From Psammoneis japonica (taxonomy: Eukaryota): a stretch of DNA of 62,431 nucleotides. The stretch is from assembly GCA_008632985.1 (NCBI GenBank), contig QPGO01000148.1, positions 124,001 through 186,431 of the forward strand, given 5' to 3'. The position numbers and the translations under genes were made by a program. The notes under the pieces were generated by a model, which saw nothing but the letters and a program-made list of their open reading frames with translations, ran no database searches and was not told the origin of the DNA. Within the stretch, counting starts at the first letter, position 1; each line of letters opens with the position of its first letter. Positions 3,354 to 60,482 of the stretch are shown in pieces.

Positions 3354-3735
3354 GGTGAAAAGAACAGAGGGCGGTTAAGCTTCGGTCACGTTGTAACGAG
3401 TTGTATCGTTCTCTTCTTTGTTGTTGTTCCTGCTCGTTTTGTTCTGTGTTCTCTCCGCTCTCCGCTTCGTTGCCATTTTCGTGTTCCACACATTCAATCA
3501 ATCTGGCGATGTGGGTGACGTAAGTCGGATAGTGTGACGTCGATATATATTTATTTTAAGAGGCATATTATTTTCAATGATACGTGGTGAATTATGATTG
3601 GATGAATGATGTGGTCGCGTTTCATGACTACAATTCCCTCCGACATACTGTATCCGCGACCATCGCTGTTTTTGTTTTGTGCGTTGCATGTTCAATAATG
3701 TTTGACCTCCAACATTAATACCGGTAGCATCAATC

Positions 3736-5041
3736 ATGTTTGTGATGACCAAAGGAACCTTGCAGGTCGTCGCGTGTCGGAATGGAGGTCAACGGGTGAT
3801 GGATCGGACGACAGGGCAAGGATTCTACCTCTCTCCTGCCGGCGAAATGAAAAGCATTTCGGATGGACTCGATTGTTGCTGTGGGGAGGAGTTCACCTCG
3901 TATGTGAGAGAACATTTGGAACCCGTTCCCTACAGTCACGATGGACCGGCTTCTAAGGATATTGATAACCTTTGGCCTAATCGGTACCTCAAGATGAAAA
4001 TTGACAATGACTGGAAAGTCGCTCGCGTGAAAGGTTGGAGAGAGTACACCTCTGGGCCCTTTTGTCCTGAAACGTTTTGGGTTCTTACGTTCAAAGTTAA
4101 TAAGAGAGACGACGGCAAACTTGTACACGGAGATCAAGTCAAGATTGATGGTTTAAGTTCTGCAATAGAGCACAATGGCAAAGTCGGTGCTGTCAAGAAG
4201 TTTGATGAGGCATCAGGGCGCTACCAGGTATGCTACCGTACATACAATCACGAAAAAGGAGAGGCAGAGAATGTTCAGATTTTATGCAAGCCCGAGAATC
4301 TAATGTTGGACAGGAAATGGGAATTGGAGGTCACAAAGTGTGATGTTGATGAAAGTGGCGTGCTTTCGGGAAACCCTTTTAAAGGAATGCAGGATGAGAT
4401 TCCCTTTGTGTGGCTCGATCCACCTACGGTCCCGGTTGCTACCCCATGCGATCATGGTGGTATCGCTGAGAACTTCGAGTTTGGAAGTGCCTATGAGAAA
4501 GCCATTGGGTCATATGTTGGTCCTTTTACTTTTGGCGGTCAAAATCCGCAGAACTTCAATTATGAACTCGTGGAAGCGTTTGCCAATGAGAATCCCACTC
4601 TCGCCAGTGACGAAGGTTTTTGTAATCATTTGTTTGTATGGTGTGTGAAGGAGTATCTGAAGGGCCATCTTAGGCATTCCACAACACACAACAATGCTCG
4701 CTCTCTCCTCTTTCTTGCGTATAATCTGCGTTATCGCTACATTCCGGAATCCAACGGAATTCGATGCACCGATAACGGAGCGTGCTATGATGAAAGTGCT
4801 AGCACGCGAAGTCTCCTGGGACTGTATCGAAACACTAAAGAAAGATTACAAAAAGATGTGCAAAATGTCCATGTGCTTTGGGTGTAGAAAGGACTTCCCA
4901 AAACTAGAAGTGAAGAGCTGTAGCAAGTGCATGTTTGCTCAGTACTGTAGCCGAGAATGCCAAGAACTTGACTGGTACGTTCATCGATACGTTGCCTTTT
5001 GCTTCAAAGATATACATAAGATGAATCGAAGCTTTTTTTAA
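3736..5041 (+). CDS. Diatom-type MYND zinc-finger protein split over two frames (3736-4887, 4694-5041); TpA-intact reference copy of a local duplication
   Basis: C-terminal CFGC...CSKCMFAQYCSRECQELDWYVHRYVA MYND pattern. SH3-like VKIDGLSSAIEHNGKVGAVKKFDEASGRYQV segment. Normal TpA content. Confidence 0.7.
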
Positions 5042-7619
5042 AAAAGAATCGTTCATTTTCGGAAAACTGACTTGTTTTTCGTTTCTTGAAATGTTCTAGG
5101 ACGTGCCACAAAGCAACATGCAGGTCAGTCAGAAGGGTGAACAGAGAGAATCAGATGCGCTGATTACCTACAACACTCATGGTTATCCATTGCATGAGTC
5201 AGCTCGACACTGTTGTAACAATTTCCCGAGTCAAGATAGATATTTTCCCGCATGGAAAAAGTGAACAAAGCCACTGGCTCTCCAAAGACCTCCGCGGACA
5301 GAAAAAATGCATGTTGCGCGAAAGGAAGAATAATAACGGCACACACGATGGTGCCGGAAATTATCCCGCACATGGATCCATGACGACCTGCATCACCCCT
5401 GCGACGCACCGTGCCTTGCTACTCACTTTCATCCGTCTACTACACTCTCAGTTGTCTCTCGAGGAAGGCGTTTGCGTACAACTGGGAAAGGTCGTGACGT
5501 CATCCCTACGATTTCCAGATTCACATTGTCATTTCGGGAACTGTTTCGAGATCCACGAATTTAGGCGGAATAACGACCAAGATTCTCTAACCAAACACCA
5601 TGTTTGGACACGAAGAACCAGCAACAGCGACATATACTGTTGCTGCGGCACAAGACGTTACCACTTGTGTGTTGACATTGGAGGATATCGAAAGGGAAAT
5701 TGTGGGTCAATCAAGACTCTGGGTAAAATGATTGAAGAGGCACCCATAACACTGGGACGTTCCATTCAATTCGAATTGCTCAAACCAATTTGAGCTGGTG
5801 CCGGTGGACAAATGTGGCTAGTTTGTGAAAGTGACAACCCGAATGTTGGTGGATAAAAAGAACTATGCAGCTCAACGCCAGGTAATAAGGGCCAACGAGC
5901 AGGCAAAATGACATGTATGCGCTGAAGGTCCAGTACATTCGTGATATACTGCAATGCAAACAAGTAAAGAGAATGCTCGACGAAAAAGAAATGATGCAAA
6001 AGAAGGATCATCCGTTTGTCATGCGTCATCTCAATTCGTACAAGGACGAGCAGTGTCTTTCCATGCTGGTCGATCATATTTTAAGGTAGAGAGCTGTCTA
6101 GTTTTATTCATATTCTTTGCAGGAAGAAATTCTACGCTGCTAACGTCGTGTGTCTAAGTACTGCTCGGAAGATCCGGCTGTGACAAGAACCAATGTCCAC
6201 CTCGATCGGCGTGGAAGGTCTCGACGAGGCCACATTTCATATTCTTGACATGAAGAGTCGGAAGGATGTACTGGTTGTTTATGGCCACCAGAGAGTCGTA
6301 GAGCCGCTAGGACGCACCGTTGTCAGTGGTCGTCATGTCAAAGTTTCCGAGATCGTCCTTGACAAGCAGGCCTGACAAGAGTCGAACTCTCCAGAGAAGT
6401 CATGAGCGTCCGAACGGAACTTTTCTCCAAAGCGCATGGGTGCTACGGGAATGCCTACTCCGGCAACTTGATGGGGATTCTTCGCTCCACATAGGTGATT
6501 GGAAGCATCAATGTCGCTGACCACTGGGATACTACCGCTCATGAACTCGACTTGCGCCACACTCATAATATCCGCGACAGAGCTGAACAAAGATAGGGTG
6601 AGTTTTGAACCATACAGAGCCACACTATTTTAATATAATACATTTCCAAATCCGTAACCAAAAGTACTCACCGATCCTCCGTACGGGCGCATACCGACAT
6701 GACTTCAGCGACTGACATTGAGACAGACTCCAATGGGTCATAAGGAACGCTTGGATCCTTTGGGTGGTTGTGGCAAAGACCTATCAAAAATGGAGATTCG
6801 TAGAGAGTATCAAGTATCAGATACAATGGATCATTGTATTACAACAAGACTTGTGTATTCGCAACGTCATTGGAATATAAGCTGGAGTTGTTGTCGCCTT
6901 TTTTTTGATGCACGCCGTGGGGCGAGGAGGATCGGTCTTAGTGCTCTTATACGATGGAGATTTCGGTGGAGATCGTGGTGCTTGTTGTGATCCTTTTCGC
7001 AATGGTCGCTACAGACTGTATACGATCTATGTTGATTGCTACCTCTGCTGCTTTTCATTGGTTTGACTGTCGTTGTTGCCGTATCCTCCAGATCCCAGCT
7101 ACTACTACTCGTCAAAAAACTCTTGCATGACCTCCAGAGCGAAACTCACGAATTCCGATTGGAAACGTGTTGTTCAGTTGAAGAAGGTATTCAACATTAT
7201 CTAGCCAGGTGATTCTTCATCTCAGGCGGAGGATTTACCGTACCATGCTTGGTACCGTGAGACAAATAAACCAACGTATTTCGAATCGTTTGTTTCTCTC
7301 TACTAGCTAGAGAGTGTCTTAGCAAGGTACTTTAGAATTGACATTCTTCTGTTGCTCCGTCGCAGTAGGGCAGATCCTAGGTACCTACAAGTGAACACGA
7401 CGAGGCCTTGGGGTACACCGCGAAGACACAGCGACATCAAAGTACGCAACAACAACGCAAGCGCTACGACCGTCATCGCAGTCCATTGACGTACGTACGG
7501 AATAACTTACACGCACATAAAGATTGCTATGTTGCACTTTTAGTCTTTCTACTTCTCCATTGTAAAAGTTCAAGGGGTGTTTCAAACAACTGAAACACAC
7601 CAAAAGATGCGGTCGAAAT

Positions 7620-9190
7620 CGGTTGAGCACGGCATTGTTGCAGAGACAACAAGAAAACAGAAAACTTTCAAGTCAACCACTTGCCAAGCCATTTTACTCC
7701 CCACGAGTGAATGCTTGCCGTGCGGCCATGTCACCGGCACAGCAAAACCCCGATTCAGCATTCCATCAATGGCGTGATCTGCTCAGTGAGCTCTTGCTGC
7801 TTTGCAAACTGGCACTTGCTGTCTGTTTCAACAGCCGTGGTCTTGAGCGACCCGTGAACGGGCAACTTCCTGTGCTCAAAGACACAAGAGTGACATGGAC
7901 TCAAGGCCAGAGAGATGCACTCAATTTGCCCAAACAACCTCTGGAGTTAACTGGTGACACCTGCAATGCCACCTTCAACCATGCAAGAGAGCTGAAGCAA
8001 CTTAAACAAAAAAAAAAAGAGAGACAAGCCACCTGTGCTGGAGTCAAGCTCATGGCATGTCAGGGAAGAAGAAGGAGAGAATCACACCACATGGGCCAAA
8101 TGCTCTGAGGTCATTGTTTGTCATGCTTCTCAAATGATGAAGCAAAGAAAGTGCTTGATCCTTCTCTGCACTGGAAAGGACTGTGCCTTGCTTCAACAGA
8201 CAGGTTTTGATGCTCCACCAGCTGGGGTTGCTGTGCTTCTGCTTTGCCTGTGGCAACAGCAACATTCCGGCACCCAGCAACTGAGACTTTGTTGCAGCAA
8301 TTTGTGCACAGTCAACAGGAGGTTTTGTTGTGAATCTGAGTGGAGCACCAGGTGTTGGTCTAAAATCCAAGCCAGGGTTGCTTGGCAGAACACCCCCTGC
8401 AAAGCTCAATGACATGTGGGTGTGCTGAGCAAGGACAGCAGTTGGCACTCAGTTTGTGCTGGAGAGCCCCACAGCACACCTTGGAGCAAAAAGCTTGTAG
8501 CCAAAGGGGGGGGGGGGGGGGTGTTGCCAAGGAGGCAGGGGACTTTTTTGTCTCTTTGGGTTGCAAACCATGGCAGAAGAATGGTGGGCTGGTGTCAAGA
8601 TGCACTGCAAAAATGACTCATTTGCTTGCATGAAGACAAGATGCCATTGCTGGAAATCCATTGCACACTTGACATGATGCTGCCATTTGATGTCTTGTGC
8701 AAAGGCAGAGAGAGAAGCACAAAGCAAGCAGCGCAAGCAGGTTTCCTGACATTTCAGCCACACCAATGACAGAAAGATCATTTGTGCTGGCAGGCTTGAA
8801 GCAGGCAGTCATGGCATCTTGCTTGAGCTGGTGACGTGCAGACCAAAATGTGCAGAGCTCTGTGCAGAGGACCAATTTTGGCAATGACATTGGCCCCTCT
8901 GTTGAACTTCTGAATTGCCAGGTCTCACAGTCTGTTTGCTTGCTGCAACACATGCTTTTTAACATGGCGGCAACAAGTCCTCTGCTGCAAAGGCATTTTG
9001 TTCAGAGGCGATGACCACAGCAATTTCTTTGTTTCAGAAAAATGGCTTTGGTGTTTTGTGCCATGTCAATTTTTTTCTCTTTGGAGGGACAAAAATTCAG
9101 CGCCACAGTGGTGTCACAACAAACATTGTTTTGCATGATTTTGTTGCAATGAATTTGTGCAGAGCACATGCAGAGATGTGCCGCCAGCCT
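7620..9190. other. TpA- and CpG-depleted degenerate tract; contains a possible SF2 helicase C-terminal relic (~8100-8330, + strand)
   Basis: Only ~6 TA dinucleotides in 1.6 kb. Translated fragments LQQTGFDAPPAGVAVL and LLQQFV.RVNR resemble helicase motifs V/VI. Confidence 0.4.
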
Positions 9191-10740
9191 CAAGGGACAG
9201 GCTCATCCTCAAAATGACAAAAAGATGGGTGAAATGTGTCAATGTGCTTTGGGTGCAGAAAAGGCACTCCAAAACTGGATGTGAGGAGCTGCAGCAAGTG
9301 CATGTTTGCTCAGTGCTGCAGCCAAGAATGCCAGGCTGGTGTTTTCATTGATGTGCTGCCTTTTGCTTCAAAGATGAGCACAAAACAAATTAGAGTCTTG
9401 ACTTTAAAAAAAAAAAAAGGTTGTTTTGGGAGAACTGACTTTTTTTTGTTTCTCATTGACATGCTCTGAAACTTGCCACAAAGCAACATGCAAGTCAGTT
9501 GAAAGAGTCAGATGATGAGCCAGTGCCACAAAGTTGCAACAATTGTCCTTGTCAAGACAGGCTGTTTCTTGCATGATAAAAAGAGCTTGCAGCTCAAGGT
9601 TGCAAAGTGCAGCAGCTCACTGAACAAAGTCTTCTTTGCAAGATCTTTGTTGTTGTGTTGCATGTTTGGTCCCTGGCTCTGTTGATGTCTCTGCATTTTT
9701 GCAGAATTGACAGCTTGTGATCATGATGCAAGACCAGCTAAGTGCAACATTGTCAAGTCACCCCACCTCTTGTCACTTCTCATCCTGCACATCCCACTTG
9801 TCAATGTTTCCACCAGACTGCTGGAAAAGCAAAAATTTTTGAAAGAGCTTCATGTCAAGCAAACTGGTGTTTGAAAGCATGCATTGCTTGCTTGATTCTT
9901 GTCCTGCCACTTTTCTTGCAGTCAACATTGTGGCTCAATTCCACAAACTCAAAACAAGACACATGTGTTGCTTTGAACAAATTGTGCTCTCATCATCAAC
10001 CAGGTTTTGTCTCATTTCTGTTCTGCTCAAGCTTTTGTCACTTTCAATCCTTCAGCTTCATGTGCAAAAACAAGAGCAGCAACTCATTGCAGTGGTGCAT
10101 TGAACAAAGCTGCTGGCTCTCTAAAGAGCCCAGCTCTGCATGAACAAAAAATGAGTGTTGCGTGGAAGGAGGAGGAAGTGGCAACACACAGCACACATGA
10201 TGTGGTTTCAGAAATCACCCCACACATGTGAATCCAAGATGACAACCTCCTGTGTCACCCCTGGGCCACACCATTCCATCTGCACTTGCCACTTGCTTTC
10301 ATCTGTCTGCTGGGCTCTCAGTTGTCTCTCAAGGGAGGCATCTGTGCAGAGCTGGGAAAGGTCACAACTGCATCCCCTGTGACTCACATTGCCGCCATTT
10401 CAGGAACATTTTTGGGGTTCACAAATTCAGGCAGAAAGGCCAAGATTCTCAAACCGAATGCCGTGCATGTTTGGACACAAAGAACCAACAAAAGCGGTGC
10501 ATGCTGTTGCTGCAGCTCAGATGTTGCCACTTTTGTGTCTTGATTTTGAAGAATTCTGAACACCAAAAGGGACATTTTGGGTTGATTGAGATTGGGCAAA
10601 ATGATTGAAGAGGTGCCCACCAAATCAAGATTCTCCCCTCAACTTGCAATGCTCAAACCACTTGGAGCAGATGCTCAGGACAAATGTGGCCAGTTTGTGA
10701 AAATGTTGGCAAAAGAAAAAAACACTGCACAGCTTGGCAC
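9190..10740 (+). repeat. Hypermutated partial duplicate (copy B) of 4850-5900 (MYND C-terminus and downstream DNA)
   Basis: 9240-9500 aligns with 4870-5130 and 10140-10740 with 5300-5880. Many differences are TA->CA/TG and CG->CA/TG. Confidence 0.85.
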
Positions 10741-11339
10741 CAGGGAGTTGTGAACTTTTGCCATTGGAAATTGTTGCAGGTGGTCATCAGGGTGATTTTG
10801 AGTGTGCCCTTGACAACAAGCTGGTCAAGTCCATGAGTCTGGGGCTCCCCGCGGCATTTCTCTTGGGCAGCAAATTAAAACAAGATCCTGTTGTTCCAAT
10901 CTTGGCACATCCTGGGGATGTCATGACGTTGGGAGGGAAGAGCTGATTGTGTTTTCATGGAATGGCAAGGGTGACACCAGCAGATGCAGTGATCTCCAAT
11001 GTTTGCAAAAAGAGTTGCAGGCTCTTTTGAGAAATGAATGCATGAGCTCAGTGGCAAGCGATGGGTGTCAGGGTGCAAGTCCAGCAAATGGTGCGACAAA
11101 GTCGACGTGTCTGATTTCAGATTGTGACAAATGGGCTCTGTGGTGGTCTGTCTGTCCCAGCATCAAATGATGTCAACGTTCGACAGGTGTTTCCCAAATG
11201 GAGCACCTGAAAATCCACAAGACGAAAATTCTCAATTGGTTGTCATGCATCTCTCTGTGATGCTCTTCAAATGAAGAGCACACGATTTTTCCCATTCTTC
11301 ACGCTCCTTAAATCTAGCCACGCTGGTGTGCTCTTTTCT

Positions 11340-12760
11340 TCATCGAATGCGACGGCAGTCTGGACACGTCATTTCTTCATCTCTGTTCAATTTTGCTTTG
11401 CATTTCCCTTTTCCGTACATCCATGATCCACAATTAAGGTCGCAAAATGCAAAGCGTTTTGTTTCTTTGCTTTCACATTCGCAACAGTGCCACATCTTTC
11501 CGCACCAACATTTCCAATTGTCCTTAAAACACGCCAAACACATTCGCCCATTGCACGCCGAACATTTCTGCCAATGCCCAGTGTCTTCCATTGCACAAAC
11601 GTGGCAAACATACGAACTGCAGTTTCCAATGCATTTGTCGAGATTGCCTGAATCAAGGCACATTTCGCACAAGGCCCAGCCATCAGAGCACGGGCACTCA
11701 AACAGTGAGTTCACTGATGCGTCGCAATCACGGCAGAAAAAGCTTCCGCATTCCGCAGAACAATGGCAACCACAATCACGACAAGTTGCATTCTCGCACT
11801 CAAGACAGTGGTCTGTTGAGCAAGGGTCCGATGGGTCGTAACCGGGCGATGCGTGGAATTTTGAACTGCAATGCTCGCACTCCACCTCCATGCTGTCGTT
11901 GCTGGCCTTTCTGACAATTTCACCCAATTCTTTGTTTGCTTCCATTTTTTGTGCCTGTCCTTCTTTGGTGCATGATTAGCTTTCCCTGCCTGCATCTGTG
12001 GTTGTGGATGCTTCGACAGGAGCATCCTCAACGGCGTGACTCTTTTCCGCTGCTAGATTCTGTTCCTTGTTTTCTTCCACTTGCACCTGTCCTTCTTCGG
12101 CACCTGATTGGCTTTCGCTGCCTGCATCTGTAGTTTTTGATGCTTCAACAGGAACGTCCTCAACGGCGCGACTCTTTTCCGCCGCTACGATCTGTTCATC
12201 ATCACTGCTGTCATCCAGCACGATGGGATTCTCGCGTGCAGTCCTGTTTTTCCTTTCCAAAACTTGAGCGCGAGTCTCCCGGGTGTTTCACTTGGGACAA
12301 TTGCAGGTTGTGCACTCGGAATTGTTGTTGGAGATTTCCTTGCAGTGCACACAAAAATGGAGAAAGTGAGGAGCATGGTTTCGACAAGCAATGACGTTGC
12401 AGCCCATTTCCGACATGCAAATCATTGTCTTGCATTCCGGACACTGAACGCTTCCCTCCATCATGTTTTCCTGCTTTACAAAGGACCGGATGGACATCTG
12501 GGCGTGCGTCATCCTTCGTGATGTGGTTGCAGCATCTGCAGTCGGTGACGGGGAATCTCTTGCCACCGCATTGGATGGCACAGGAAACGGCGCAGTCATT
12601 GAGGCAGAATGATTGTGGGGAGTGGAGTCATTGTGGTCCACAGATCGCGATGGGGACTTTCATTTTCCTGCAATGGAAGTCACAGAATCCGGCACAGGCT
12701 CTGAGGTGTCAGCGCTGGGCAGTGCCACTGCTTGACGACTCATTTCTCTGCAGACTGCAA
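11340..12760 (-). pseudogene. Disrupted Cys-rich protein with an IBR/RING2-like module, a tandem acidic repeat and a C-terminal CxxC-rich region
   Basis: CPECKTMICMSEMGCNVIAC...HFCVHC pattern. A TGA at 12288 (probably from CGA) interrupts a frame that continues into ERKNRTARENPIVLDD. AAEKS.AVED.PVEAS.TTDAG occurs twice. CxxC-rich ORF 11340-11945. Confidence 0.55.
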
Positions 12761-13039
12761 GCAGCGCAGCAAGAAAAGAGAAGAGCCAGCAGAGCAGGTG
12801 TCACTCAGGAGAGATGGAAGATGGGCACAACAACGTAGAAGTGCAAGCATGTTCATTCTCAATTCATCGCTCCAACAAAAAATGGCAATCGTGTGTCTGT
12901 CTTGTGTCCGTCGGTGTCACAGGGTTGTTCTTCGTGTCACCACTTTGCGGTCAAAATTCAGAATTTGCAATCGTGATGACAACAGTTGACTTTCTACTGG
13001 GCTCATTTCGTCCACTGAAAGGTGAGTCCAGCTGAATTC

Positions 13040-14380
13040 ATTCACTTTGTCAGAGCCAGGACATGCGTTGAGTGCACGTGTGTGAGAAAGTGGTCCGTTT
13101 TAAGTGGCCGAACGATGTCGAAAGAACGCGAGAGCGAGGGCATGAGCAGCAGGTGGCAGAAATGCAAGCACTGAATTTTTCGATGCAACATGGACTTGAA
13201 TGGCCTCTGGTGCATGTGTTTGCATCAGTGTTTGTTCTCTGCATGCAAGCAGGTGCAGTGCCGGTTGGTTTTGCAACCCCGTTCTTGCAGCATTCTCTCT
13301 GTGTGGAAACACAGCATGCAGAGTGCACACCAACCACTGCTTTGTGTGAGTTGTTCTGCAAAAATGTTTTCTCTCACATCTTTGATCAACGAGTTTCCAC
13401 TCGCTTGGGTCTGCATGGAACCCATGCTTGTCACACAACAGATGGCAGTTGTGCCAGTAAATTGAGAAGTCCAGCCTTCTTGTGTTGTCATGAATGAAGG
13501 TTTTCAGAGACTCAAGGATGTTGGAATTGTGGAGCCCAATGCTGACATGATGGAGATGGCCATGTTTTCTTTGGCAGCTTGCGCCAATGTCAAAAGTCAT
13601 GCAAATCTTGGAGCTGTTCAAATCAAACATTTTCAGGTGCTTGTTTGGTGGATTCAAGATGGGCAGCATCATGGTCAACAGTTGACAGCTGGTGATGCAA
13701 CTGCAAATGTTTTGGCAACAGCTGGTGAGCCAAAGCTTCTTGTTAAAAGGAAAGGGAGAGTGCTGCTGTTTTGGTTGGCAACCTGGCAAAGTTCAAGCCT
13801 GAAAATTGCAATTTGCACAAGGGTGCATTCTTGAACTTGTTGTTGCAAAAGTTGAGCACTTTGAAGGCACCGTTGTGACATGTTGTCCATGCATGCTTGC
13901 ATTGCACCAAATGACTTTGTGAGTGAGGAAAAGCACATCATGTGGTGCCAGTTGCCACTTGTTGGTCTGCTTTTGAGGAAGACAATCTCACAGGTGCACT
14001 GCATGGTCAAAGAGCATCTGTTCAATGCCCCTGCCTGGCTGGGCTCAGATTTCCCCCAGTTTCTTGATGCTGCAGAGAAAATGGCTGTGCTGCTGTTTGG
14101 TCTTGGGTCAATCATTGCAATGGTGAAGGAGAGTTGAGCAAGCACACCGCTTTCTCCAAAAGTGCCATCAAAATGGTTCGTCACAAGCACAAAAGGGTGT
14201 GTCAATTCAAGAGACTTGCCAACAGGCTCACAAAGGCATTCATTGCCCTTGACAAGGATCCTGACTTGAGACACTTGGAACATCAGAAGGCCAACATGCT
14301 TTTGCACTGCAGCACTCAAACAACTGCTGATTCTGAGTTGGTGGAGTCCAGTTGTTTTCGACAACACATGCTGAGTTTTG
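13040..14380 (+). mobile_element. Degenerate CoDi-type copia relic (LTR end, PBS-like site, gag N-terminus), related to the 16.3-23.2 kb element
   Basis: attcattcac-tttgtcagagcc at ~13036-13057 mirrors the LTR-end/PBS junction at 16477-16498. ORF 13490-13834 (EGF..LKDV...LGAVQIKHFQVLVWWIQD) aligns with gag EGFTTLENI...LGTVQIKNLQAPVWWCQD. Confidence 0.75.
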
Positions 14381-15085
14381 ATTGGATGTGAACAATGTGG
14401 TTGCACTTCATGACTGAAGCTCCGTTCAACACATCCATGACCCATCTTGCTGCTTTTGTTTTGCATTGTGCATGTTCAACAATGTTTGGCAGTTCTGTTC
14501 AATGCATCCACGACCAATCGCTGCTTTTGTTTTGCATTGCACACTCAACAATGTTTGACTTCCATCACCATGGCTGACACCAACAGCAGCAACCATGTTT
14601 GTGACAAACAGATGGAGGTCAAGGGGTGATGGATCCAATGACAGGGCAAGGACACTGCTTCTCTCTTGCCCGCAGCAAAGCATTTCAGAAAGACTTGATT
14701 GTTGCTGTGGGGAGGAGATCACCTCACATGTGAGAGAACATTTGGAGCCCTTTTCCTGAAGTCACCAAGGACTGGCTTTCATGGAGATTGATGACCTTTG
14801 GCCTGATTGACACCTCAAGATGAAAATTGGCCATGGCTGGAAAGTTGCTTGCATGAAAAGTTGGACAGAGCACACCTCTGGGCCCTTTTGCCCTGAAACG
14901 TTTTGCTGTCTTACAGTCAAAGTTGACAAGAGAGACAACGGCAAACTTGTGCATGGAGATCAAGCCAAGATTGATGTTTTGTTGCATTCTGCAACAGAGC
15001 ACAATGGCAATTTTGGTGCTGTCAAGAAGTTTGATGAGGCATCAGGGCACCACAAGGCATGCCACCGGGTGTGCAATCATGAAAA

Positions 15086-15140
<55 letters not shown>

Positions 15141-16300
15141 TTCAGATTTCATGCAAACCCAAGAATCCAGTGTTGGTGGCCAGGAAACAAGAGCTGGAGG
15201 TCACAAAGTGTGACATTGATGAAAGTGGCATGCACCAGGGAAACCCTTTTGAAGGAATGCAGGACAACATTCCCTTTGTGTGGCTGGATCCACCTGTGGC
15301 CCCAGCTGCCACCCCATGCGATCATGGCGGTGTCGCTGAGAACTTTGAACTTGGAAGTGCCCACGAGAAAGCCATGGGTCACATGTTGGTCCTTTTACTT
15401 TTGGCAGTCAAAATCTGCAGAAGTTCAATTCATGGTGGAAGCGTTTGCCAATGAGAGTCTCACACTCGCCACGACAAAGGTTTTTTGCAATCATTTGTTT
15501 GCATGGTGTGTGAAGGAGCACCTGAAGGGCCAACTGGGCATTTTGCAACACACAACAATGCTTTCTTTCTCTTCTTTCTTGTGCACAATCTGCATTGTTG
15601 CTGTGTTCTGGAATCCAACAGAATTTGATGCACAGACAATGACTTGGAGGAGAAGATCTCCAAAGGTGTGGACACAGAGAACTCTGGTGAACAGAGCATG
15701 GTGTGATGAAAGTGCCGGTGCACGAAGTCTCCTGTGATTGCATTGAATCACCAAAGAAAAATTGCAAAAAGATGGGAATGCCCATGTGCTTTGGGTGCAG
15801 AAAGAACTTTCCAAAACTGGAGGTGAAGGCTGTGGCAAGTGCATGTTTGCTCAGTGCTGCGGCCGAGCATGCCAACAACGTGATTGGTGCGTTCATCGAT
15901 GTGTTGCCTTTTGCTTCAAAGACACACACAAAGCAACATGCAAGTCAGTCAGAAGTGTGAACAGAGAGAATCAGATGTGCTGATCATCTGCAATGCCAGC
16001 GATCATCCATCACATGAGCCAGCTCCACACAGATGTGACCATGTTGTGTCGTCCCGAGCCAAGACAGACAATTTCAGTCCCGAATGGAAAAAGAGAGCTT
16101 GCAGCTCAAGGTTGTAAAGTGCAGTGGCTAGTTTGAGCAAAGCCTTGTTCACAAGATCTGTGTTTTCGTGTTGCATGTTTGGTCCTTGGTGCCAACACTC
16201 TAGAGAGATGTCTCTCCGCGTTTTTGGGTTTGATGGTGCTGTTGAATTGCCGCATGTCAGCAGTGAACAAACCAAAACCATGACCCATGCCATGAAGTCA
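14380..16300 (+). pseudogene. Hypermutated duplicate (copy C) of the MYND gene and flanks (3600-5170)
   Basis: Colinear alignment, e.g. cctaatcggtacctc (3976) vs cctgattgacacctc (14802), gttaataag vs gttgacaag, ttgtacacgg vs ttgtgcatgg. Confidence 0.92.
15089..15136 (+). repeat. (AG)24 microsatellite
   Basis: Directly visible; corresponds to ggagaggcagag in the paralog at ~4258. Confidence 0.95.
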
Positions 16301-16303
16301 CAC

Positions 16304-16485
16304 CGAGTAAATCTGGATGGAGGGCTGTGTCACAATTGGTGATTGGTTAAGACATGTGGATTGAGTGGTGCTGCAGCGACACGCTCACAATCCAACCAGG
16401 TTTAGGTTCGCATTGACAGTGTTGCTGCTTTCTATTTAGACTTAAGGCACCGTGCTTGTTCTTTCATTGCATTGAGATTTGTTTG
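16304..16485 (+). repeat. 5' LTR
   Basis: Direct repeat of 22973-23156; starts CGAGTAAATC. Confidence 0.9.
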
Positions 16486-16944
16486 CTTTGTCAGAGCCAA
16501 GACGAAAAAGACAGAGCAAAATGGTCTCGAATGCAATCGTCATGGACGATTGTTTGTTGTGTTGTTTGCATGGAACGTGCAGCTGTAGAAACGGCACTGA
16601 ACTGCACGCAATGAGTCAGAATTCGGATTGATGCGCACGATGATGCGTCTTGTGTCGCTTGTTGTGACATCCACAAAAACAGCTTGCAATGGCAATGCTC
16701 GCAAAGATGGTCACTGTCCTCACACGTGCAATGGGTGTGAAGGGACTGCGGCATTGGGCGACATGCCCGAGCGTGTGCCCAATGATGTCGGTTGACATGA
16801 ACGACACAGGACTGATCACCCTGATGTCGGGTGGCTGTGTGAACCCGTTGTCACAACACAGAGAAAGTGCAGCCATCATGACCATGCAGACTCACAGCCA
16901 CATGCTCCCGGTGCAGGACCTTTGCACCCTTTCTCTGTTGTGGG

Positions 16945-18474
16945 ATGGCAGCAGTGGCAGCACCAGCAGCAGCACTTGCGGCGTCAGCCGCGGCAGCTGA
17001 CGTTGATGCAGTTTCACAAGTTTGTGGTGTTGCTGACCAGAACGCAAGGGCGAGGTTGGTCTTCTGTGAAGGGTTCACGACTTTGGAAAACATCGCAGTG
17101 ATGGAGAGTGATCACGATGTGGAAGACATGGCGCAAAGGGCGTCTCGTCACACGGTGGCCGACGGACGTGTGACTCTTGGGACTGTTCAGATCAAGAACT
17201 TGCAGGCACCAGTGTGGTGGTGCCAGGATTTGCTCAAACGGAATCAGCCATTGGTTGCGGCAGACTTCAATGTGGCAGCTGTGGCTGCGGCCCGGAATGG
17301 CAGGCGCATCGAAAAGGAGCGCACGGATTCAGACGCGTCGGCAAGCGGTCTCGTAAAGTTCAAGCCCGATGACTTCGATGTGTGCGAAGATGCTTTCCTG
17401 AATCTCTTGGCACAGAAATTTGGCATGTTGAAAGAACCCCTTCGCCATGTCGTGAGGACAATGCCAGCTCCGGCTGCATTCACGGATGCTCAACAACAGT
17501 GCATGTGCCAGATGCCATTGAATGGCACTGCACATGACGAGGACAACCGCAGTGTTTGCCGCATGTTGAAGGAATGCTTGGTCGACACGGCAGGATGGGC
17601 ATGGATCGAACCGTTCAATGCGACAGAAGACGGACGTGGAGCATTCAACGCATGGGTTGACCATTGCAATGGACAGGGCGAGTTGAGCAAGTGCATCCAT
17701 CTGGCTGCGGCAACTGTTGAAACCTTGTTTTGCAAAAAGGAAGGATCGCTCCCGTTCGAAAAGTTCAATGAGAAACTCACCAGTGCTTTCACCACTTTGA
17801 ACAAATCACCGGACGACCACAAATCTGAACGACAGAAAGTTGACATTCTTCTAAAAGGGATCCGAACGGATGACACTCGTCTTGTTGCAGCAACGGCTGT
17901 CATTGGCAGTCAGCACCCTCGTGACTTCGCGGGGGCATGTGCTTGTTTCTCATCCGAAGTCTCTCGTTTGCATGCAGGTGCTCAGTTGGAAGCCCGGCGT
18001 CACTCGAAGTGCAAGATTTCTGAAATGAGCCGTGGTGGCGGCGGTGGCCGCGGTTTTTATCGAGGTCGTGGTCGCGGAGGAAGATTTGGATGTGGGGGTG
18101 GATGCGGACGTGGTGGTGGCCGTCAAGGCAGAGGTGGCGACCACACTGCAATGATCAATGGAGTCAATGCATCCAACCCTGCAAGGAGCTTTAGCGCTCA
18201 AGAGTGGGAAAAGTTGCAGCACAATGGGGGCATGAGCCACGTGTTCCAAGCTCGCGAACGAATGGGTCATGGACGTGGTGGTGGCCGTGGGTCTCCCGCA
18301 GGTCGACAAGGACGTGATGCAGCTGAAGCCCAAGTCCATCAAGATGGCCAAGGCCAAACCCAACAACAGGATCAGGAGCAAAGGAGTGGCGGGCGTGGTC
18401 GCGGCGCTGACCGGGATCGCGGTGGACGCAATGGATGCGCCTTCGGTCGGGGAGCCTACAATGGTTCCACCTGA
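16945..18474 (+). CDS. Copia Gag (Tyr-depleted, RGG-rich C-terminus)
   Basis: 509-aa ORF with CoDi gag features (EPLR.VVR, DGRGAFNAW..H.NG.GE, RGRG tail). Only 2 Tyr. Confidence 0.85.
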   Translation: MAAVAAPAAALAASAAAADVDAVSQVCGVADQNARARLVFCEGFTTLENIAVMESDHDVEDMAQRASRHTVADGRVTLGTVQIKNLQAPVWWCQDLLKRNQPLVAADFNVAAVAAARNGRRIEKERTDSDASASGLVKFKPDDFDVCEDAFLNLLAQKFGMLKEPLRHVVRTMPAPAAFTDAQQQCMCQMPLNGTAHDEDNRSVCRMLKECLVDTAGWAWIEPFNATEDGRGAFNAWVDHCNGQGELSKCIHLAAATVETLFCKKEGSLPFEKFNEKLTSAFTTLNKSPDDHKSERQKVDILLKGIRTDDTRLVAATAVIGSQHPRDFAGACACFSSEVSRLHAGAQLEARRHSKCKISEMSRGGGGGRGFYRGRGRGGRFGCGGGCGRGGGRQGRGGDHTAMINGVNASNPARSFSAQEWEKLQHNGGMSHVFQARERMGHGRGGGRGSPAGRQGRDAAEAQVHQDGQGQTQQQDQEQRSGGRGRGADRDRGGRNGCAFGRGAYNGST

Positions 18475-18483
18475 CTCCTTGGG

Positions 18484-21400
18484 GTGGCAACAGCTGCTGG
18501 AGCATTGGCGCATTTGGCACACTTGTCGTTTTTGCTTGTGTTGCTCTTCTTGCTGTTGACCAAACCCCACCCAACATCTCATTTCAAAGGAAAGGCGACA
18601 AAGAGGCACATTGCCGTGACATCAAAACGTGTGATCCGATCGACGAGTTCTGCACAGATGACAAATTTGATGACACCTGGGTTTGTCGCTCGAAATGAAT
18701 GTGATGCTCACGTGGACACTTGTTGTGCTGGGGCGAACTGGAAGCTCATGGAGATGACAAATGAAGTGTGCAAGGTGCGCCCATTTCTGGACTCTTATGA
18801 GCCGATCAAACAGATTCCTGTGGCACGTTGTTGCACCGCATGGACAGATCCGGAAACGACTCGTGAACATTTGCTGGTTGGTGATCAAATGCTCTGGTTT
18901 GGGACCGACATGGAACACTCACTTTTGAATCCTAACCAACTCCGTGCGTGCAACACACCCGTACACGACAACCCTTACGATGCCCGAAACGGATTTGGCA
19001 TTGAAGCTGACGAAGCTTTCATCCCTTTCAATGCCACGGGGACAATTGTGTCTTTCAAGTCTCGTGTTCCAACGGATTGGGAAGTGCAGAACTTGCCGGT
19101 CATGCTGTTGACAGGTGACGTGTGGGATCCAGCACAGACAGACATGGGCTTGCTGGAGCGCACTAGAGAGCAGGCGGAGATGCGCACTGTTCGATCATCA
19201 ACCTCTGGCATGCGACAAGAACAGGTCTTGGAATTAAGGAGCGAGAAGGCAAAGTCCCAAGCAGCACGCTGGGGCAAGGTCAAAATGCAACTGTCGTCTG
19301 CATCTCCTGTCTGTCAACTTCAATCGTTTTGCGACAGGCTTGTCAGCTCAGTGAACGTGGCTTGCACACATCGCGATGACGTGGACAAGAGGCAGAGGGC
19401 AGTCAAAGATTTGTGCAGCAAGGATCGGCACTCGAAGGTTGACGCTGAAGAGCTGGCCCGAAAATGGAGTGTCGGTTTAGAAACGGCAAAAGATGCTCTC
19501 AATGTAACAACTCAGCGTGGTGTGCAAACGGCGACCCAGCCGATGTCACGAAGAGTGAGGGTGGATCATCTTGACTTGCATCGGAAGCGTCTGAAAGGAA
19601 CATGGTTTGTGGACACTTTGATGTCCAAGGTGAAGTCTTTGCTCGGTGACACGTGTGCCAATGTTTGTGCTCAGGGCAAATTCGTGAAGGTTGTGCCGAT
19701 GACCGCCAGGTCGGAGGCAGGTTTTTCTCTTGTTGAATTCACAGACGACGTGGGAGCACCAGAATGTCTCATGTCGGATGGGGCAGGAGAGTTCACAGGA
19801 AGGAGCACCGAATTTGTGAGACACGCACGACGTATGAGAATGCAATTGAGAACATCAGAGCAGGGTCGGAAGAACCAGAACCAGGCAGCGGAGCGCGAAA
19901 TTGGTTTCTCAGCCAAACGTTGGCGGCTGCGGATGACAAAGAAGAAGGCACCAAAGCGATCATGGGATTTTGGTCTTGTTTGCGAGTCAGAATTAGTGTC
20001 GCGCATGGCAAGAGGCAGGGATGAGAGGACTGGGTGTGAAGAGGTCACTGGGCAGACACCAGAGACAGGCGAGCATTTGGATTTTGGTTTCTACGATGTG
20101 GCACGGTGGTGGGACAGGCCCAACAAGCCGAGTGCAACTGACGATCCTCGAAGGCTTGGACGGTGGCTTGGCATCTCACACAAAGTTGGCTCGGACATGT
20201 GCCATTGGATTGTTGCAGAAAGTGGGAAGATTGTCTCCAAAACATCGGTCGAGCACGTGACACAGGCTGATGTGGTGCAACCGGATGTTCGCGTTAAGGT
20301 CGACAACTTTAATGAGCAGCTGGAGAAGCGATTGGACGACACCAACTTTGTCTTAAAAGGCGATGAAGCTGTGCCCGCATTCGTGTTGGACGATCTTGCA
20401 ATCGACGGCAACCTCGGTGTGGAATGTGAGGGTGGCATCACGCCAGAGGACGAGGAACATGGCAACATGCCATCACCCGACGAGTGACCAGACGACGACG
20501 ATGAGCAGGCAATCAATCAACACCTGGGAATGGAACTTGTGTTTGACATCGGAGCCGACGGCGAGTGACGTGGTGTTGCAACGAAACGTGCAAGAGGACA
20601 GGATGGGCGTCCAATTGGGACTCGGCATCAAAACCCATTGTTTGACACTCGCGAATGCAAAGTGGAATGTGCCGACGGAACCACAGATGAGCACACAGCC
20701 AATGTCATTGCCGAGAACATGTTTGCTCAGGTCGACAGTGGGGGCAACCAGCACTCTGTCTTACACGAGACACAGGACCACAAGAGGAGTGACGATGCGG
20801 TGTTGATTGCTGACGGCACTGCACGAACCACTGACGGGAAGGAGAAGAAGAAGATCACAACAAAAGGATGGAATTTGTTGGTCGGATGGAAGGATGGCAG
20901 CTCATCTTGGGTCAAACTCAAAGATCTAAAGGACTCCAACCCCATTGAAGTTGCTGAGCATGCTGTTGCGAACAGGTTGACGGAGGAACCTGCTTTTGCT
21001 TGGTGGGTCACACATGTCCTGCGCAAACGGAACCGCATTGCATCCAAGGTCAAGAAGAAGCACTGGCGCACGACTCACAAGTTTGGGGTCCGATTGCCCA
21101 AGTCCATGGAGGACGCTTTGCGGATTGATCAGGAAACGGGGACAGATTGTTGGGCTTGTGCAATCAACAAGGAGATGGCAAAGGCAAAGGTGGCATGGCG
21201 CGAGCACGAAGCTGAAACCCCTCAAGTCGTCCGGGAAGGCAAGAGCGCAACTTTGCGTGGTCATCAGGAGATCAGGTGCCACATGGTGTTCGACATTAAA
21301 ATGGATTTCACCAGAAAGGCAAGGTTTGTAGCTGGCGGACACACGACAGAGGCCCCGGCATCGATCACTTGCTCTGGCGTGGTTTCCAGAGACAGTGTGC

Positions 21401-22800
21401 GACTTGGATTCTTGTTGGCAGCCTTGAATGGCATCGACATTACGGCGATTGATCTGGAGAATGCTTGTCTCAATGCACCATGCGCAGAAAAGACATGGTT
21501 TGAAGGTGGAAAGGAATGCGGCGAGTACGAAGGAAAGGCACTTGTTGTCACTCGGGTGTCACATGGCTCAAAGAGCTTGGGATGCTCTTGGAGGTCTGCA
21601 CTGTCATCAGTCTTTTGCATGACTTGGGCTTCGAATCGACGAGAGCGGACCCAGATGTCTGCTTGCGTGCGGCGACTCGTGAGGATGGGCATGAGTGTCA
21701 TGAAATGCTTTTGGTTTGTGTCGATGACACACTGATCATTTCCCATCAAGGGAAGTCCATTGTTGCTGCAACAGGTGAACACTGTGCCGTGAAGCCCGGC
21801 AGCAAAGGAGAACCAGAAGTTTGTCTTGGAGCCAACGTTGAGAAGGTTCAGACTCAGGATGGGTGCACAATCTGGGCGAGTTCGCCGAGGTCACATGTCA
21901 AATCGGCGATTGAGACTGTGGAAGGCCTGTTGGATGAAGACGGCAACGGAGAGGTTCTGAAGAACAGTGCAAAGGATCCACTGCCCCTGAAATGCAAACC
22001 GGAGCTGGACATGACGGACGAGCCAGGCCCCGACTTGGTGGACAGGTGTTTGCAGCTGACAGGGATTTGTCGTTGGGCCATCGAGTTGGGTCGCATCGAC
22101 ATCTTGCATGAGGTTTCAATCCCATCTCAACATCAAGCTAATCCGAGGAAAGGACATCTTGAGGCATTGCATCATGTGTTTGCGCATGTGAAGAAACACC
22201 AGAACGTCGGACGCATCAGATTTGATCCAAAGGAACCGGTGATTGATGAATCTATTTTCAATTCGAACGCAGACTGGACCGAGTTTTACGGGGACATCGA
22301 GGAGGAACCACCACCACGGGCACCGAAGCCTCGTGGTGATCCGGCAAACGTCCGCACATTTGTTGATGCTAACCATGCAGGGAATGTTGTCACTCGCAGG
22401 TCGCACAGCGGGATTCTGACATTCGTCAATGACGCGCCAGTGGTGTGGTTCAGCAAGCGGCAGAACATGGTGGAATCGGCAACGTTTGGAAGTGAATTGG
22501 TTGCGATGCGGATTTGCAAGGAATTGATTGTTGCTTTGCGTTGCAAGCTTCGCATGTTTGGGGTTCCCCCTGAAGGACCGGCAAGTGTCTTTTGTGACAA
22601 TCGCGGTGTTGCAAAGAGTGCAAGTGCACCCGAGTCGGTTTTGCACAAGAAGCACAATGCCATCAACTGCCATGTTGTGTGAGAAGCGGTCGCAGCGGGA
22701 ATTGTTCGTGTTGGCAAGGAGGACATGGAAACGAACTTGGCCGATCTACTTGCGAAGGTGGTTGCAGGAGAGCGGCGATGGAAGCTTTGCTCGTGTGTTT
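18484..22800 (+). pseudogene. Copia Pol (protease, integrase, RT, RNase H) with TGA stops and a frameshift at ~21610
   Basis: ECDAHVDTCCAG protease, integrase core (DT...SDG...AEREIG), RT KARFVAGGH and CVDD, RNase H FVDANHAG...RRSHSG, NLADLLAK. Confidence 0.92.
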
Positions 22801-22972
22801 TTTGGCAATGTCCCGACACCAAGGCCAGGCACCTGTGGCTCGCGCCCACGTATCGTGGCCTCCCAAGCCAGCACATCTGGTGGTTTAATTTGGGTTCTTG
22901 TGGTTCACCTCTCTGTGAGAGGATGTTGCATGTTCAGACGAATCGGCATTGTCATTGCCGTTTCGCGGGGAC

Positions 22973-23156
22973 CGAGTAAATCTGGATGGAGGGCTATGTT
23001 ATAATTGGTGATTGGTTTTAAGATGTGTGGATCGAGTGGTGCTGCAGCGACACGCTCACAATCTAATCAGGTTTAGGTTCGCATTGACAGTGTCACTACT
23101 TTCTATTTAGACTTAGGGTATCGTGCTTGTTCTTTCGTTGCATCGAGATTTATTCG
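22973..23156 (+). repeat. 3' LTR
   Basis: Direct repeat of the 5' LTR; ends TTTATTCG; retains more TpA than the 5' LTR. Confidence 0.9.
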
Positions 23157-27878: not shown

Positions 27879-28139
27879 GCTACTACGAAGAAGAAAGAAG
27901 GATGTCACTGTGTTGCATGGAGGGATGACAGGTATGAGGAGGCGTTGCAACGTTGCAATGTTAATGACTCTATTACCGGCACCACGTTGCGACTCTTATT
28001 TTTTTCTTTGTGTGTCTCACCCATTCATTTTGAGTCGCGAATCGATCACTTCAAAGCGAGTCCCGAATCGGACGAAAGCCTCGAAAATTAATGGGTTCTC
28101 CTCCATCGCCAGGCTGGAAGGAAACATTGCGTGGGTCAC

Positions 28140-30480: not shown

Positions 30481-30489
30481 TTTGCAAGG

Positions 30490-32620: not shown

Positions 32621-33471
32621 TTCTCTGCATGTGGCGAAGCCGTCAAACGCTCCATGGCCACCGCATCTTTTCGGTGTCGATCGAAATTCAATTCGTCAAA
32701 CGTGTGCCAACAGCACAGCGTTTTTAACACACGCTTTTCCTGGTTGATGTCTCGAATCACAAAGACATCACGAAAGCATCCGTGTGCTTTGTAGCAAATC
32801 TGCCGATGATGCTTGTTCCGTTCACAGTTAAAATCAGACATGTCGATCTCATGCACATTGTTGCAAGCCGGAAAAGACTTGGACTGCCACTCGTACATTG
32901 GTTTGCACTCTGGATGTTCTTCGTAAACTGCACATTTCGCATGCCTGACGCAATGCTTGCTGTTGTTCACAATGTCATTCCGTCGTTCCAAATCGTCAGC
33001 GGAAACATTCATTTCCCTCTTGCTTGGACACACCGGGCAGTCGTCGGGAAGTCGCTGAAATGACGGTCTGTCAGGCTCAAGGATCTCATCCAGAATGTGA
33101 TTGGTGCAGATCACAAGTCTGGGGCGTACGCCACATCCAAGTTTCAAAAGATCGTCGACTCCGCCCACGGTGCAGGATGCGCCGAGCAGATGATTCAACC
33201 TGTTGCTCGCGCACATTCGTCTCAGTCCTCCACGGCTGAGCAAATCATGGGGAGGAACAGTGCTGGCCTCATTGCTGCCTCCCTGCCTCCACACAAAGAT
33301 CACAAACAACCATCCAATCAATTGAAGAAACAAAAGCACAGCAAGTGAAAGCCACACCTTTTGAACTGCAGTCATTCCCTCGCGTCGGTCATTTCGCATT
33401 CTCCCCTTTCTCAAGATTGTTCGAGACTGTTTCAGTGCTCTTCGATTTCCCATTCTAGAAATGACACTCAC
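32620..33471 (-). pseudogene. 3'-truncated diatom membrane-anchored protein kinase-like gene
   Basis: TM segment, then FPACNNVHEID, AHGCFRDVF, VLKTL, NFDRHRKDAVAMERLTASPH (kinase N-lobe of a diatom family). Breaks at the junction with gag. Confidence 0.75.
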
Positions 33472-60313: not shown

Positions 60314-60482
60314 ACACGTTCTGTTTGATCACTCTCAGTTGGTTTCTCTAAAGCGCTCTCTGCTCCAGATTGCCCTATCCATTTGATGGGGTTTGGGTTA
60401 CTTACAGTAAAGACTTCCACTTGAAAAGGCACTCAAGCCTATAAGAAAGTATGCCGATCATGTGCATGGATACCGTACATGA

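Follow-up and report, generated by a model that had tools for sequence, protein, structure and literature searches.

TpA hypermutation in the diatom Psammoneis japonica follows a per-strand TAY context and may reflect a domain-restricted A-to-G mutator

Analysis of a 62,431-nt window of Psammoneis japonica DNA (contig QPGO01000148.1), the whole stretch considered here, together with related copies and further genome stretches, showed that TpA is lost by a rule read on each strand separately: A to G change was about 3–6 times faster in 5'-TAY-3' than in TAR. The unit of the rule is a per-strand trinucleotide, TAY > TAG ≥ TAA, and not a palindromic tetramer. RTAY disappears because both of its strands are good targets, and TTAA persists because both are poor ones. 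The process acts at the DNA level and on both strands, it yields nearly pure transitions, and each copy acquires its changes once it has been inserted or duplicated.

Segmentation of the window with an HMM on TpA revealed four TpA-low tracts, in which 111 TpA sites survive over 23.8 kb. These tracts, and the part of the main domain singled out in the first-pass annotation, are the following:

7564..22976, no strand: main TpA-low domain, 4.7 TA/kb vs ~45 outside (HMM segmentation)
7620..11300, no strand: tract of the first-pass annotation, 12 TpA survivors, 0 RTAY and 9 YTAR
27998..30529, no strand: TpA-low tract, 10 survivors, 0 RTAY (HMM)
31679..33628, no strand: TpA-low tract with intact CpG (64 CG/kb), 15 survivors, 4 RTAY
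36914..40816, no strand: second heavily mutated tract, a retroelement relic, 13 TpA survivors, 0 RTAY

CpG was also low within the main domain, at 7860-11058 and 13136-15859, and the retroelement relic had a Pfam match to RVT_2 at 39307-39963 on the minus strand. The survivors at 7620-11300 were TTAA (five), CTAA (three), TTAC, GTAG, TTAG, and ATAA, and the tetramers in the two most mutated tracts (12 and 13 survivors) were those listed in the first-pass annotation. Its observation that RTAY is missing there was borne out: none of the 25 survivors were RTAY, versus 561 of 1669 sites in the TA-normal DNA of the window (Fisher p=5.1e-5). The description of RTAY as erased applies to these most mutated tracts only, since RTAY accounted for 10 of the 111 survivors over all four tracts (6 GTAC). 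TTA and TAA had been called refractory, which did not hold: over 39 stretches of the genome, just 10.5% of ATAA/TTAT and 52% of TTAA remained, and in alignments TTAA survived in 3 of 14 cases. Contigs from the public run X1, which may be the same sample as the assembly, matched the tract over 8506-15044, at single-copy depth, apart from 3 substitutions; the tract is not an assembly artefact. One of 34 surviving TA sites differed (TA/CA) in this run, a single site that gives only a hint of an ongoing process.

Before/after evidence came from a host gene copy and its duplicates, a 31-copy repeat, 15 copia copies, and an LTR pair. The corresponding features in the window are:

3560..5886, + strand: host gene region in its TA-normal source copy (the 'before' state), from alignment to the duplicates
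7463..7971, + strand: partial copy of family X, a 1.1-kb dispersed repeat; it spans the left boundary of the TpA-low domain
9211..10748, + strand: second, older mutated duplicate of the host gene region (blocks 9211-9499 and 10101-10748), intron sequence retained
14344..16098, + strand: mutated duplicate of the host gene region, from alignment to the source copy
16302..23154, + strand: copia-type LTR retrotransposon, TpA o/e 0.10, CpG o/e 0.85
16302..16483, + strand: 5' LTR, lying in the domain; TG/CA replaces 7 of the 13 TpA that the 3' LTR has
22971..23154, + strand: 3' LTR, adjoining a host gene; 13 TpA sites kept

The source gene copy has remained TA-normal while its duplicates are mutated. 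A GT-AG intron was inferred in it at 4975-5099; its long ORF had no match in the Pfam search, and by eye it contains what we take to be a MYND-type zinc-finger motif. In the main alignment block of the duplicate at 14344..16098, the 58 TpA sites of the source had become CA (31), TG (21), CG (2), or other dinucleotides (2), and 2 were kept. The second duplicate retains intron sequence and was therefore copied at the DNA level; its alignment includes a poorly aligned stretch, and its pooled counts were not relied on.

At least 21 copies or fragments of the copia element were found, with identities of 88–100%, and all of them were TA-poor; some copies of a sister copia family had intermediate TA o/e values of 0.20-0.25. 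The two LTRs of the window element are 10% divergent, mostly because of changes at TpA and CpG. Across the copies of the element, YpR transitions made up 2701 of the 3139 differences from the window copy. Among the alignment columns of the 15 copies, TA was retained in 242/2028, a retention biased by the choice of TA columns for being polymorphic, and CG in 3041/3775. The direction of change followed the flanks, as R..R columns went to CA by 206:111 and Y..Y columns to TG by 458:201. Two earlier counts for this element were reproduced: 4 of 32 survivors at 16600-22976 were RTAY, and the five Tyr codons left in the first two ORFs (2/531 and 3/671 codons) each followed a pyrimidine. Since 58 of the 107 Tyr codons in host ORFs also follow a pyrimidine, the Tyr-codon pattern alone is weak (about 0.05). 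The third ORF had a single Tyr codon, in GTAC, and a Pfam match to RVT_2 (E=1.6e-4); the Pfam search named neither of the first two, for one of which "gag" is the label of the first-pass annotation.

The form of the rule was resolved by a comparison of models over 10 NTAN classes with 1044 survivors in 213 kb from the 39 genome stretches. The deviance was 800 with no context, 374 for RTAY versus the rest, 272 for RTAY plus TTA/TAA, 156 for per-strand TAY/TAR, and 22 on 6 df for the four bases per strand. The tetranucleotide preference proposed earlier thus survives as a ranking, with RTAY lowest and TTAA highest in survival, and not as the unit of recognition (374 vs 22). Aligned pairs of TA-normal and mutated copies gave the same result. 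There were 16 pairs at first; one of them (L097) was dropped for mutations common to another (L096), and family X was analysed separately, which left 11 pairs, and pairs mostly below 75% identity were left out, except four short blocks. At asymmetric sites of the 11 pairs, the changed strand was TAY in 78 cases and TAR in 33 (p=2e-5). RTAY sites of the source copies were kept in 1/145 (16-pair set) and 0/70 (11-pair set). The preference for 5' T was strong, with 173/303 TAC and 116/233 TAT changed in the 16 pairs and fractions of 0.03–0.12 for the other NAN contexts. An A at position +2 slowed change further, by a factor of 0.66, in both survivor counts and pairs.

A competing-strand fit to family X (277 observations) gave relative rates of 1 for TAT, 0.84 for TAC, 0.20 for TAG, and 0.15 for TAA (LRT 70 on 3 df), so that the order is TAT ~ TAC > TAG ≥ TAA. 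Some family X copies have hits in common (L121/L130 12/13; L116/L122 12/13), and for this reason the analysis also included tests at site level and a bootstrap over sites. The rates vary by data set; the direction-only copia estimates were 0.37 for TAA and 0.61 for TAG.

Three further context effects were rejected. A simple ATA/TAT rule (10/111 vs 820/1669) was absorbed by the per-strand model. Shielding of TACG by methyl-CpG was suggested by the window, where a CpG touches each of the 6 GTAC survivors, and by a load of 0.46 in survivor counts, but the alignments showed TACG to be as fast or faster (factor 1.2-1.4), and the apparent protection reflects confounding by uneven load. Secondary 5-mer motifs (GAAT/GGAC-type words) were not used, since TA>TG and CG changes at flanking positions confound them.

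The spectrum of change at TA columns was narrow: 249 of 257 changes were to TG, CA, or CG, and 8 were of other kinds; only 2 were TA>CG double hits, so that nothing points to a symmetric attack on the two strands. At non-TA sites, a weak A>G leak was detected, at about 1/10 of the TAY level and with the same bias toward a 3' pyrimidine. It affected 24/112 VAY versus 14/167 VAR sites in the 11 pairs (p=0.002), and an independent count in pairs gave 39/573 RAY versus 23/766 RAR (p=0.001) and 51/393 CAY versus 25/456 CAR (p=2e-4). In family X, the rates were 0.063 for CAY, 0.060 for AAY, and 0.043 for GAY; a deaminase signature would place 5' C second and 5' A last. Location in a silenced domain outweighs copy number; multicopy family X is often spared (17 of the 31 copies compared were TA-normal).

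The reading that we favour, with a probability of roughly 0.55, is a nuclear, domain-restricted mutator that would turn A into G on DNA by deamination, on a single strand each time, reading 5'-TAY-3'. The domains may be CpG-methylated heterochromatin (DNMT5-type, like that of other diatoms), to which a zinc deaminase, of the TadA/ADAT fold or another, would be recruited; the resulting hypoxanthine would be fixed as G at replication. This would probably serve genome defence, since it removes Tyr codons and signals that contain TA. The pattern appears to fit a TadA/ADAT-like DNA adenine deaminase, as a candidate, better than Pol eta. In the first-pass annotation, a TA-specific deaminase had likewise been preferred to a broad WA polymerase signature on the ground that AA is not depleted, and the AA o/e of 1.26-1.44 at 8-11 kb agrees with that. 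Its suggestion that the signature could identify the mutator was too strong: read as base pairs, A>G in TAY and T>C in RTA are one and the same change, which means that sequence cannot tell the attacked base, and the genome encodes a canonical ADAT2, an ADAR-like protein, and Pol iota-like and Pol eta-like genes.

Several observations weigh against a deaminase, and others for it. Hairpin-loop targeting was rejected, as unpaired probability had no effect as a covariate (p=0.81), and so was processive strand clustering in family X, where same-strand neighbours numbered 71/157 vs 81.7 expected and clustering might be masked as hits accumulate; both are effects that could come from a single-strand deaminase. 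TadA-derived editors work best after T, gain with a 3' C, and lose with a 3' A, as reported in PMC8989541, and the variant ABE8e-YA is reported to favour YAY over YAR (PMC12528748). The diatom process resembles these editors (ABE8e, ABE8.20-m, ABE3.1, ABE8e-YA) in A>G change with a 5' T, a favoured 3' pyrimidine, and a disfavoured 3' A. The editors are, however, engineered, act on R-loop single strands, and have a much looser 5' preference, CA being a good target for them and reaching ~1/10 of TA in the diatom; the 5'-T stringency found here is far above theirs (+25 to +52% in PMC8989541). Amphioxus ADAT2/3, a natural deaminase of tRNA that also acts on A in DNA and the only natural case of this for ADAT2, prefers GAA for A, TCG for C, and hairpin loops (PMC10354150), whereas neither the GAA preference nor the loop effect was seen in the diatom. 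The diatom ADAT2 has an asparagine motif matching that of amphioxus. No expansion of TadA/ADAT genes was seen among the best candidates in the genome, and ADAR-like proteins lacking a dsRBD are widespread in diatoms. To our knowledge, the asparagine is general in eukaryotic ADAT2.

An unlikely alternative is that a Y-family polymerase (Pol iota, inserting G opposite T, or a Pol eta-like enzyme) errs, most of all on template RTA, in short repair patches of methylated domains, such as those at T:G mismatches that 5mC deamination leaves. Encoded in the genome are a Pol iota-like protein whose best solved matches are all Pol iota, at least one Pol eta-like protein, with a second recognised by inspection, and, also by inspection, kappa-like and REV1-like proteins. 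Pol iota favours G opposite T (PMC3031609), although no flank rule for it was found in that paper; in somatic hypermutation, Pol eta also changes A to G at TA in DNA, close to cytosines that were deaminated, and the VAY leak is compatible with a polymerase too. TpA hits were slightly commoner where a decayed CpG lay no more than 25 bp away (56/187 vs 26/129; permutation p=0.076), but TpA loss runs ahead of CpG decay and far exceeds it, so CpG repair cannot seed most hits. The WA signature of Pol eta, moreover, combines hot AA with many transversions, and the diatom shows neither. AA was no hotter than CA or GA (AAA 18/569, AAG 16/413, AAC 25/356, and AAT 42/399 in the 16 pairs, similar to CAN and GAN), and the 8/257 other changes contrast with a Pol eta-linked B-cell spectrum of 13% A>C, 12% A>T, and 28% A>G (10.1101/783118).

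It is somewhat more doubtful still that the attacked base is thymine, with the T of RTA oxidised or hypermodified (5-hmU or 5-formylU, pairing with G), or that the A of TpA is methylated and then deaminated. The base-pair footprint would be identical, and every context result fits. TpA is, like CpG, a YpR palindrome of the type that modification enzymes presumably read, and a lesion route would account for the pure transitions and the absent strand clustering. Against this, TA>CG double hits are rare, and the genome gave no TET/JBP match in a search without a positive control, which makes that result weak. We give very little credence to DNA physics (stacking, A-tract rigidity, or nucleosome phasing) as what sets the flank bias of a TpA-specific process, in which case context would say little on the enzyme. 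Purines 3' of A do slow change at +1 and again at +2, as stacking would, and a mild VAY > VAR bias is present even in TA-normal family X copies (24/2087 vs 22/3037), but physics covers the flank order only and neither the ~ten-fold 5'-T requirement nor the sharp domain edges; it can coexist with the deaminase explanation. That survivors mirror ancestral TA-poor elements, selection, or assembly error is already refuted by the before/after pairs: the sister copia copies suggest that some ancestors may be partly TA-poor, but TA-normal sources carry RTAY, the same TA is resolved differently among copies, and run X1 reproduces the tract.

The deaminase reading has a published counterpart. In the integrated viral DNA of Bigelowiella natans, A>G/T>C changes occur almost only at TpA, giving TpG and CpA, with ADAT2 proposed, and mutation-accumulation lines show TpA-only A>G at a rate measured to exceed the background 1000-fold (Mettrop et al., bioRxiv 10.64898/2026.01.13.699255). 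TpA hypermutation was thus already described in this 2026 preprint; its main text contains no flank analysis and none of the words "context," "flanking," "trinucleotide," or "diatom," and is therefore without the TAY rule. A literature search that largely did not cover subscription journals found no diatom precedent or flank rule for TpA hypermutation. Both systems show almost only transitions at TpA in blocks of foreign or repeat DNA, with sharp tract edges over retroelements and duplicates in the diatom, and the diatom ADAT2 carries the asparagine cited in the preprint. Single-copy targets are possible in B. natans, and most of 8-16 kb in the diatom is at single-copy depth (run X1), with diverged paralogues for parts of the tract. 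The two differ in lineage, Rhizaria and diatoms belonging to separate supergroups, and in extent: the preprint reports two viral regions and 124 clusters, whereas ~56% of the DNA sampled in the 39 diatom stretches is affected, including retrotransposons and host-gene duplicates, with CpG decay overlaid.

As in ascomycete RIP, the diatom changes are dense, context-specific transitions in repeats that suggest genome defence. RIP is triggered by homology and acts on both copies; in the diatom, by contrast, 17/31 copies of family X are TA-normal, and so is the source copy of the gene. RIP also consists of C>T at CpA and raises TpA, whereas CA>TA was found in 13/1560 cases (16 pairs) and TpA is depleted. 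ADAR prefers a 5' U with a 3' G on RNA or RNA:DNA substrates; here, unlike in ADAR-type editing, TAG was slow (0.20) and intron-bearing DNA duplicates were changed on both strands.

Hardly any natural mutator that turns A into G in genomic DNA is known, and adenine base editors had to be engineered. The fingerprint obtained here (TAT ~ TAC > TAG ≥ TAA, a weak VAY leak, no WA, no transversions, and slowing by A at +2) provides a matrix for enzyme screens, and any candidate for algal TpA hypermutation must reproduce it. With TAT set to 1, the matrix spans 0.85-1.1 for TAC, 0.2-0.6 for TAG, and 0.15-0.4 for TAA. If both lineages have one mechanism, the TAY matrix predicts the pattern of the 231 B. 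natans mutations. As a tentative wider reading, which we hold possible, diatoms may have a natural, chromatin-recruited, strict-TAY DNA adenine deaminase that has rewritten more than half of this genome; it would represent a SAR-wide "A-to-G RIP" defence shared with B. natans and a native editor of adenine in dsDNA, for which ADAT2/3 and the ADAR-like protein without a dsRBD are possible candidates. In TA-low domains of diatom genomes, repeat ages, LTR dating, and annotation are strongly biased.

TpA occurs at about 40–50 per kb in the host-like DNA of the window and at 3–8 per kb in four tracts, where the observed/expected ratios of CA and TG rise to 1.5–1.9. For a cyclophilin encoded in the window, most of the best homologues that carry a name come from diatoms. 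CpG is also depleted in these tracts, over narrower sub-tracts; at 31679–33628, TpA is gone and CpG is retained. The survivor tetramers listed in the first-pass annotation proved exact on recount (12 survivors at 7620–11300 and 13 at 37.0–40.8 kb), and none was RTAY, as claimed, versus an expected 33.6% (561/1669, p = 5e-5). The counts for the copia element also agreed: 4 of 32 survivors were RTAY, and a pyrimidine preceded each of the five Tyr codons in ORFs 1 and 2. With all window tracts pooled, RTAY made up 10 of 111 survivors. Degenerate tandem repeats occupy 28456–30370, within a TA-low tract.

The tract was recovered in contigs of the public sequencing run X1, which rules out a consensus error; X1 is not independent support, since it may be the source sample. 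Five single-copy differences from the window lay inside the tract (8310, 11790, 13458, 14163, and 16234), namely one TA/CA, three CG versus TG or CA, and one transversion, and none was found across ~3.7 kb of TA-normal DNA. The TA/CA difference falls on a GTAA survivor, on its TAC strand. These differences hint at change still under way, or at alleles. Elsewhere, at 60479–60808 and 60809–61269, a 183-bp direct repeat (97%) adjoins a gap of 461 N and is possibly an assembly overlap.

From the 91.4-Mb source assembly, 39 stretches of 10 kb were chosen arbitrarily on large contigs (390 kb in total), and 55.7% of this sample was TA-low.

Survival of TpA relative to expectation in the genome sample, by tetramer
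ATAT, 0.006
ATAC, 0.019
GTAC, 0.037
ATAG, 0.056
ATAA, 0.105
CTAC, 0.121
GTAA, 0.171
CTAG, 0.187
CTAA, 0.304
TTAA, 0.518

The flank preference of TpA loss is real, strong, and genome-wide. The tetranucleotide motif earlier proposed for it, with RTAY erased and TTA/TAA refractory, gave way to a per-strand order (TAY > TAG >= TAA), in which the base that follows an A on either strand governs how fast that A is lost, with loads of 0.32 for A, 0.80 for G, 1.49 for C, and 2.12 for T. The deviance of this model was 22 (6 df); it was 374 when RTAY was set against all other classes and 272 when TTA/TAA was modelled as well. The fit is imperfect, with uneven load and effects at +2 left over. RTAY appears special because TAY is read on both of its strands.

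Direct comparison was possible for a gene region and its duplicates, which retain intron sequence:

3560–5886, TA-normal gene region
14344–16098, mutated duplicate
9211–10748, mutated duplicate

Of the 58 TpA sites in the main alignment block, 52 were converted to CA or TG and only 2 persisted. The mutation of intron-bearing duplicates to both CA and TG indicates a DNA-level process acting on both strands, of which retroelements are not the sole targets. At asymmetric sites in 11 non-redundant pairs, the TAY strand was mutated 78 times and the TAR strand 33 times; 0 of 70 RTAY and 3 of 14 TTAA sites were kept, and an A at +2 slowed change by about one third. The idea of a protected TACG was rejected, since such sites changed no more slowly in the alignments. 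The source gene (3706–5100) appears frameshifted, its long ORF ending at 4887, its zinc-finger motif lying in a different frame, and its alignment with the copy at 14.3 kb containing a 52-bp gap; it still keeps its TpA, which argues against selection as the cause of sparing.

Comparison with the window copy among 15 copia copies gave 3139 differences, 2701 of them YpR transitions that were biased in the predicted direction. TA was kept in 12% of cells and CG in 81%; TpA was therefore lost separately in each copy, outpacing CpG loss. The direction-only fit was flatter (TAA 0.37, TAG 0.61, TAC 1.13). The 3′ LTR (22971–23154), adjoining a host gene, kept 13 TpA; in the 5′ LTR (16302–16483), 7 have gone and 6 remain, 5 of these being RTAR or YTAR. 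The LTR ends are not TG...CA; they read as an inverted repeat, short and starting with CG, the target duplication is 4–5 bp, and the ends are possibly altered. A sister copia family (73–74% identity; loci L022–L030) exists in two states, one with TA o/e of 0.20–0.25 and intact CpG, the other with TA at 0.05–0.06 and CpG at 0.28–0.75.

Family X, a dispersed 1.1-kb repeat with a partial copy on the left edge of the main tract (7463–7971), comprises 31 copies, of which 17 are TA-normal and 14 are mutated in part or throughout. Its competing-strand fit gave TAT 1, TAC 0.84 (0.51–1.65), TAG 0.20 (0.09–0.39), and TAA 0.15 (0.02–0.29). The family (L105–L133) is polarised, with a TA-low 3′ flank in 18 of 28 copies and a TA-low 5′ flank in 5 of 29; it may be the terminus of some larger element or a domain-boundary mark.

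The TA density of copies tracks that of their flanks (rho 0.68, n = 28), and half-mutated copies have lost TA on the side nearest a TA-low neighbour; several intact copies directly adjoin a TA-low domain. In contrast to RIP, repeat status alone is insufficient here, and a putative silenced domain is the likelier cue. DNMT5 is known to place CG methylation on transposons in diatoms, according to the available part of one report (PMC9998398).

Changes in TA columns were transitions in 249 of 257 cases. Adenines outside TA changed at a ~10-fold lower rate with the same 3′ bias (VAY 24/112 vs VAR 14/167 sites; in independent pairs, RAY 39/573 vs RAR 23/766 and CAY 51/393 vs CAR 25/456). This leak may partly be general background, since TA-normal copies have a milder VAY excess. 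AA was no hotter than CA or GA, so the earlier view that it is not a preferred target holds.

ADAR prefers a 3′ G, which the diatom pattern does not match. The pattern also differs from that of Pol eta, described in the accessible text as WA with many transversions (10.1101/783118), and from the GAA preference given for amphioxus ADAT2 in the part available (PMC10354150). TadA-derived editors, as far as the available text describes them (PMC8989541, PMC12528748), favour a 5′ T, with a 3′ pyrimidine raising and a 3′ A lowering activity, in qualitative agreement with the diatom order. The first-pass preference for a deaminase is supported to this extent; its expectation that the signature could identify the mutator is not, as the footprint is the same whether A or T is the attacked base. 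The chemistry would be adenine deamination with a probability of roughly 55%. Hairpin-loop and strand-clustering tests were negative.

The genome encodes one ADAT2 (two exons seen), an organelle-type TadA, Pol iota and Pol eta-like proteins, and two genes of the A_deamin family, of which one is ADAR-like and the other, by inspection, ADAT1-like. These are candidates only, and none is tied to the process. The ADAR-like protein (gene L176, G000:C79:343700-346700) has 246 homologues; among the matches listed, PF02137 is the only domain, and those with names come from centric and pennate diatoms. A TET/JBP search of the genome, run without a positive control, gave no match. A dCMP deaminase locus was found twice with identical protein sequence (L080 and L081, on contigs C41 and C317), possibly as a haplotig.

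Our literature search found no diatom paper on TpA hypermutation. For Bigelowiella natans, the available text of one preprint (Mettrop et al., 10.64898/2026.01.13.699255) describes A>G hypermutation restricted to TpA, names ADAT2 as a candidate, and contains no flank analysis. The diatom process is a variant of the hypermutation reported there, and the per-strand TAY rule provides a useful screen for the candidate mutator enzyme.
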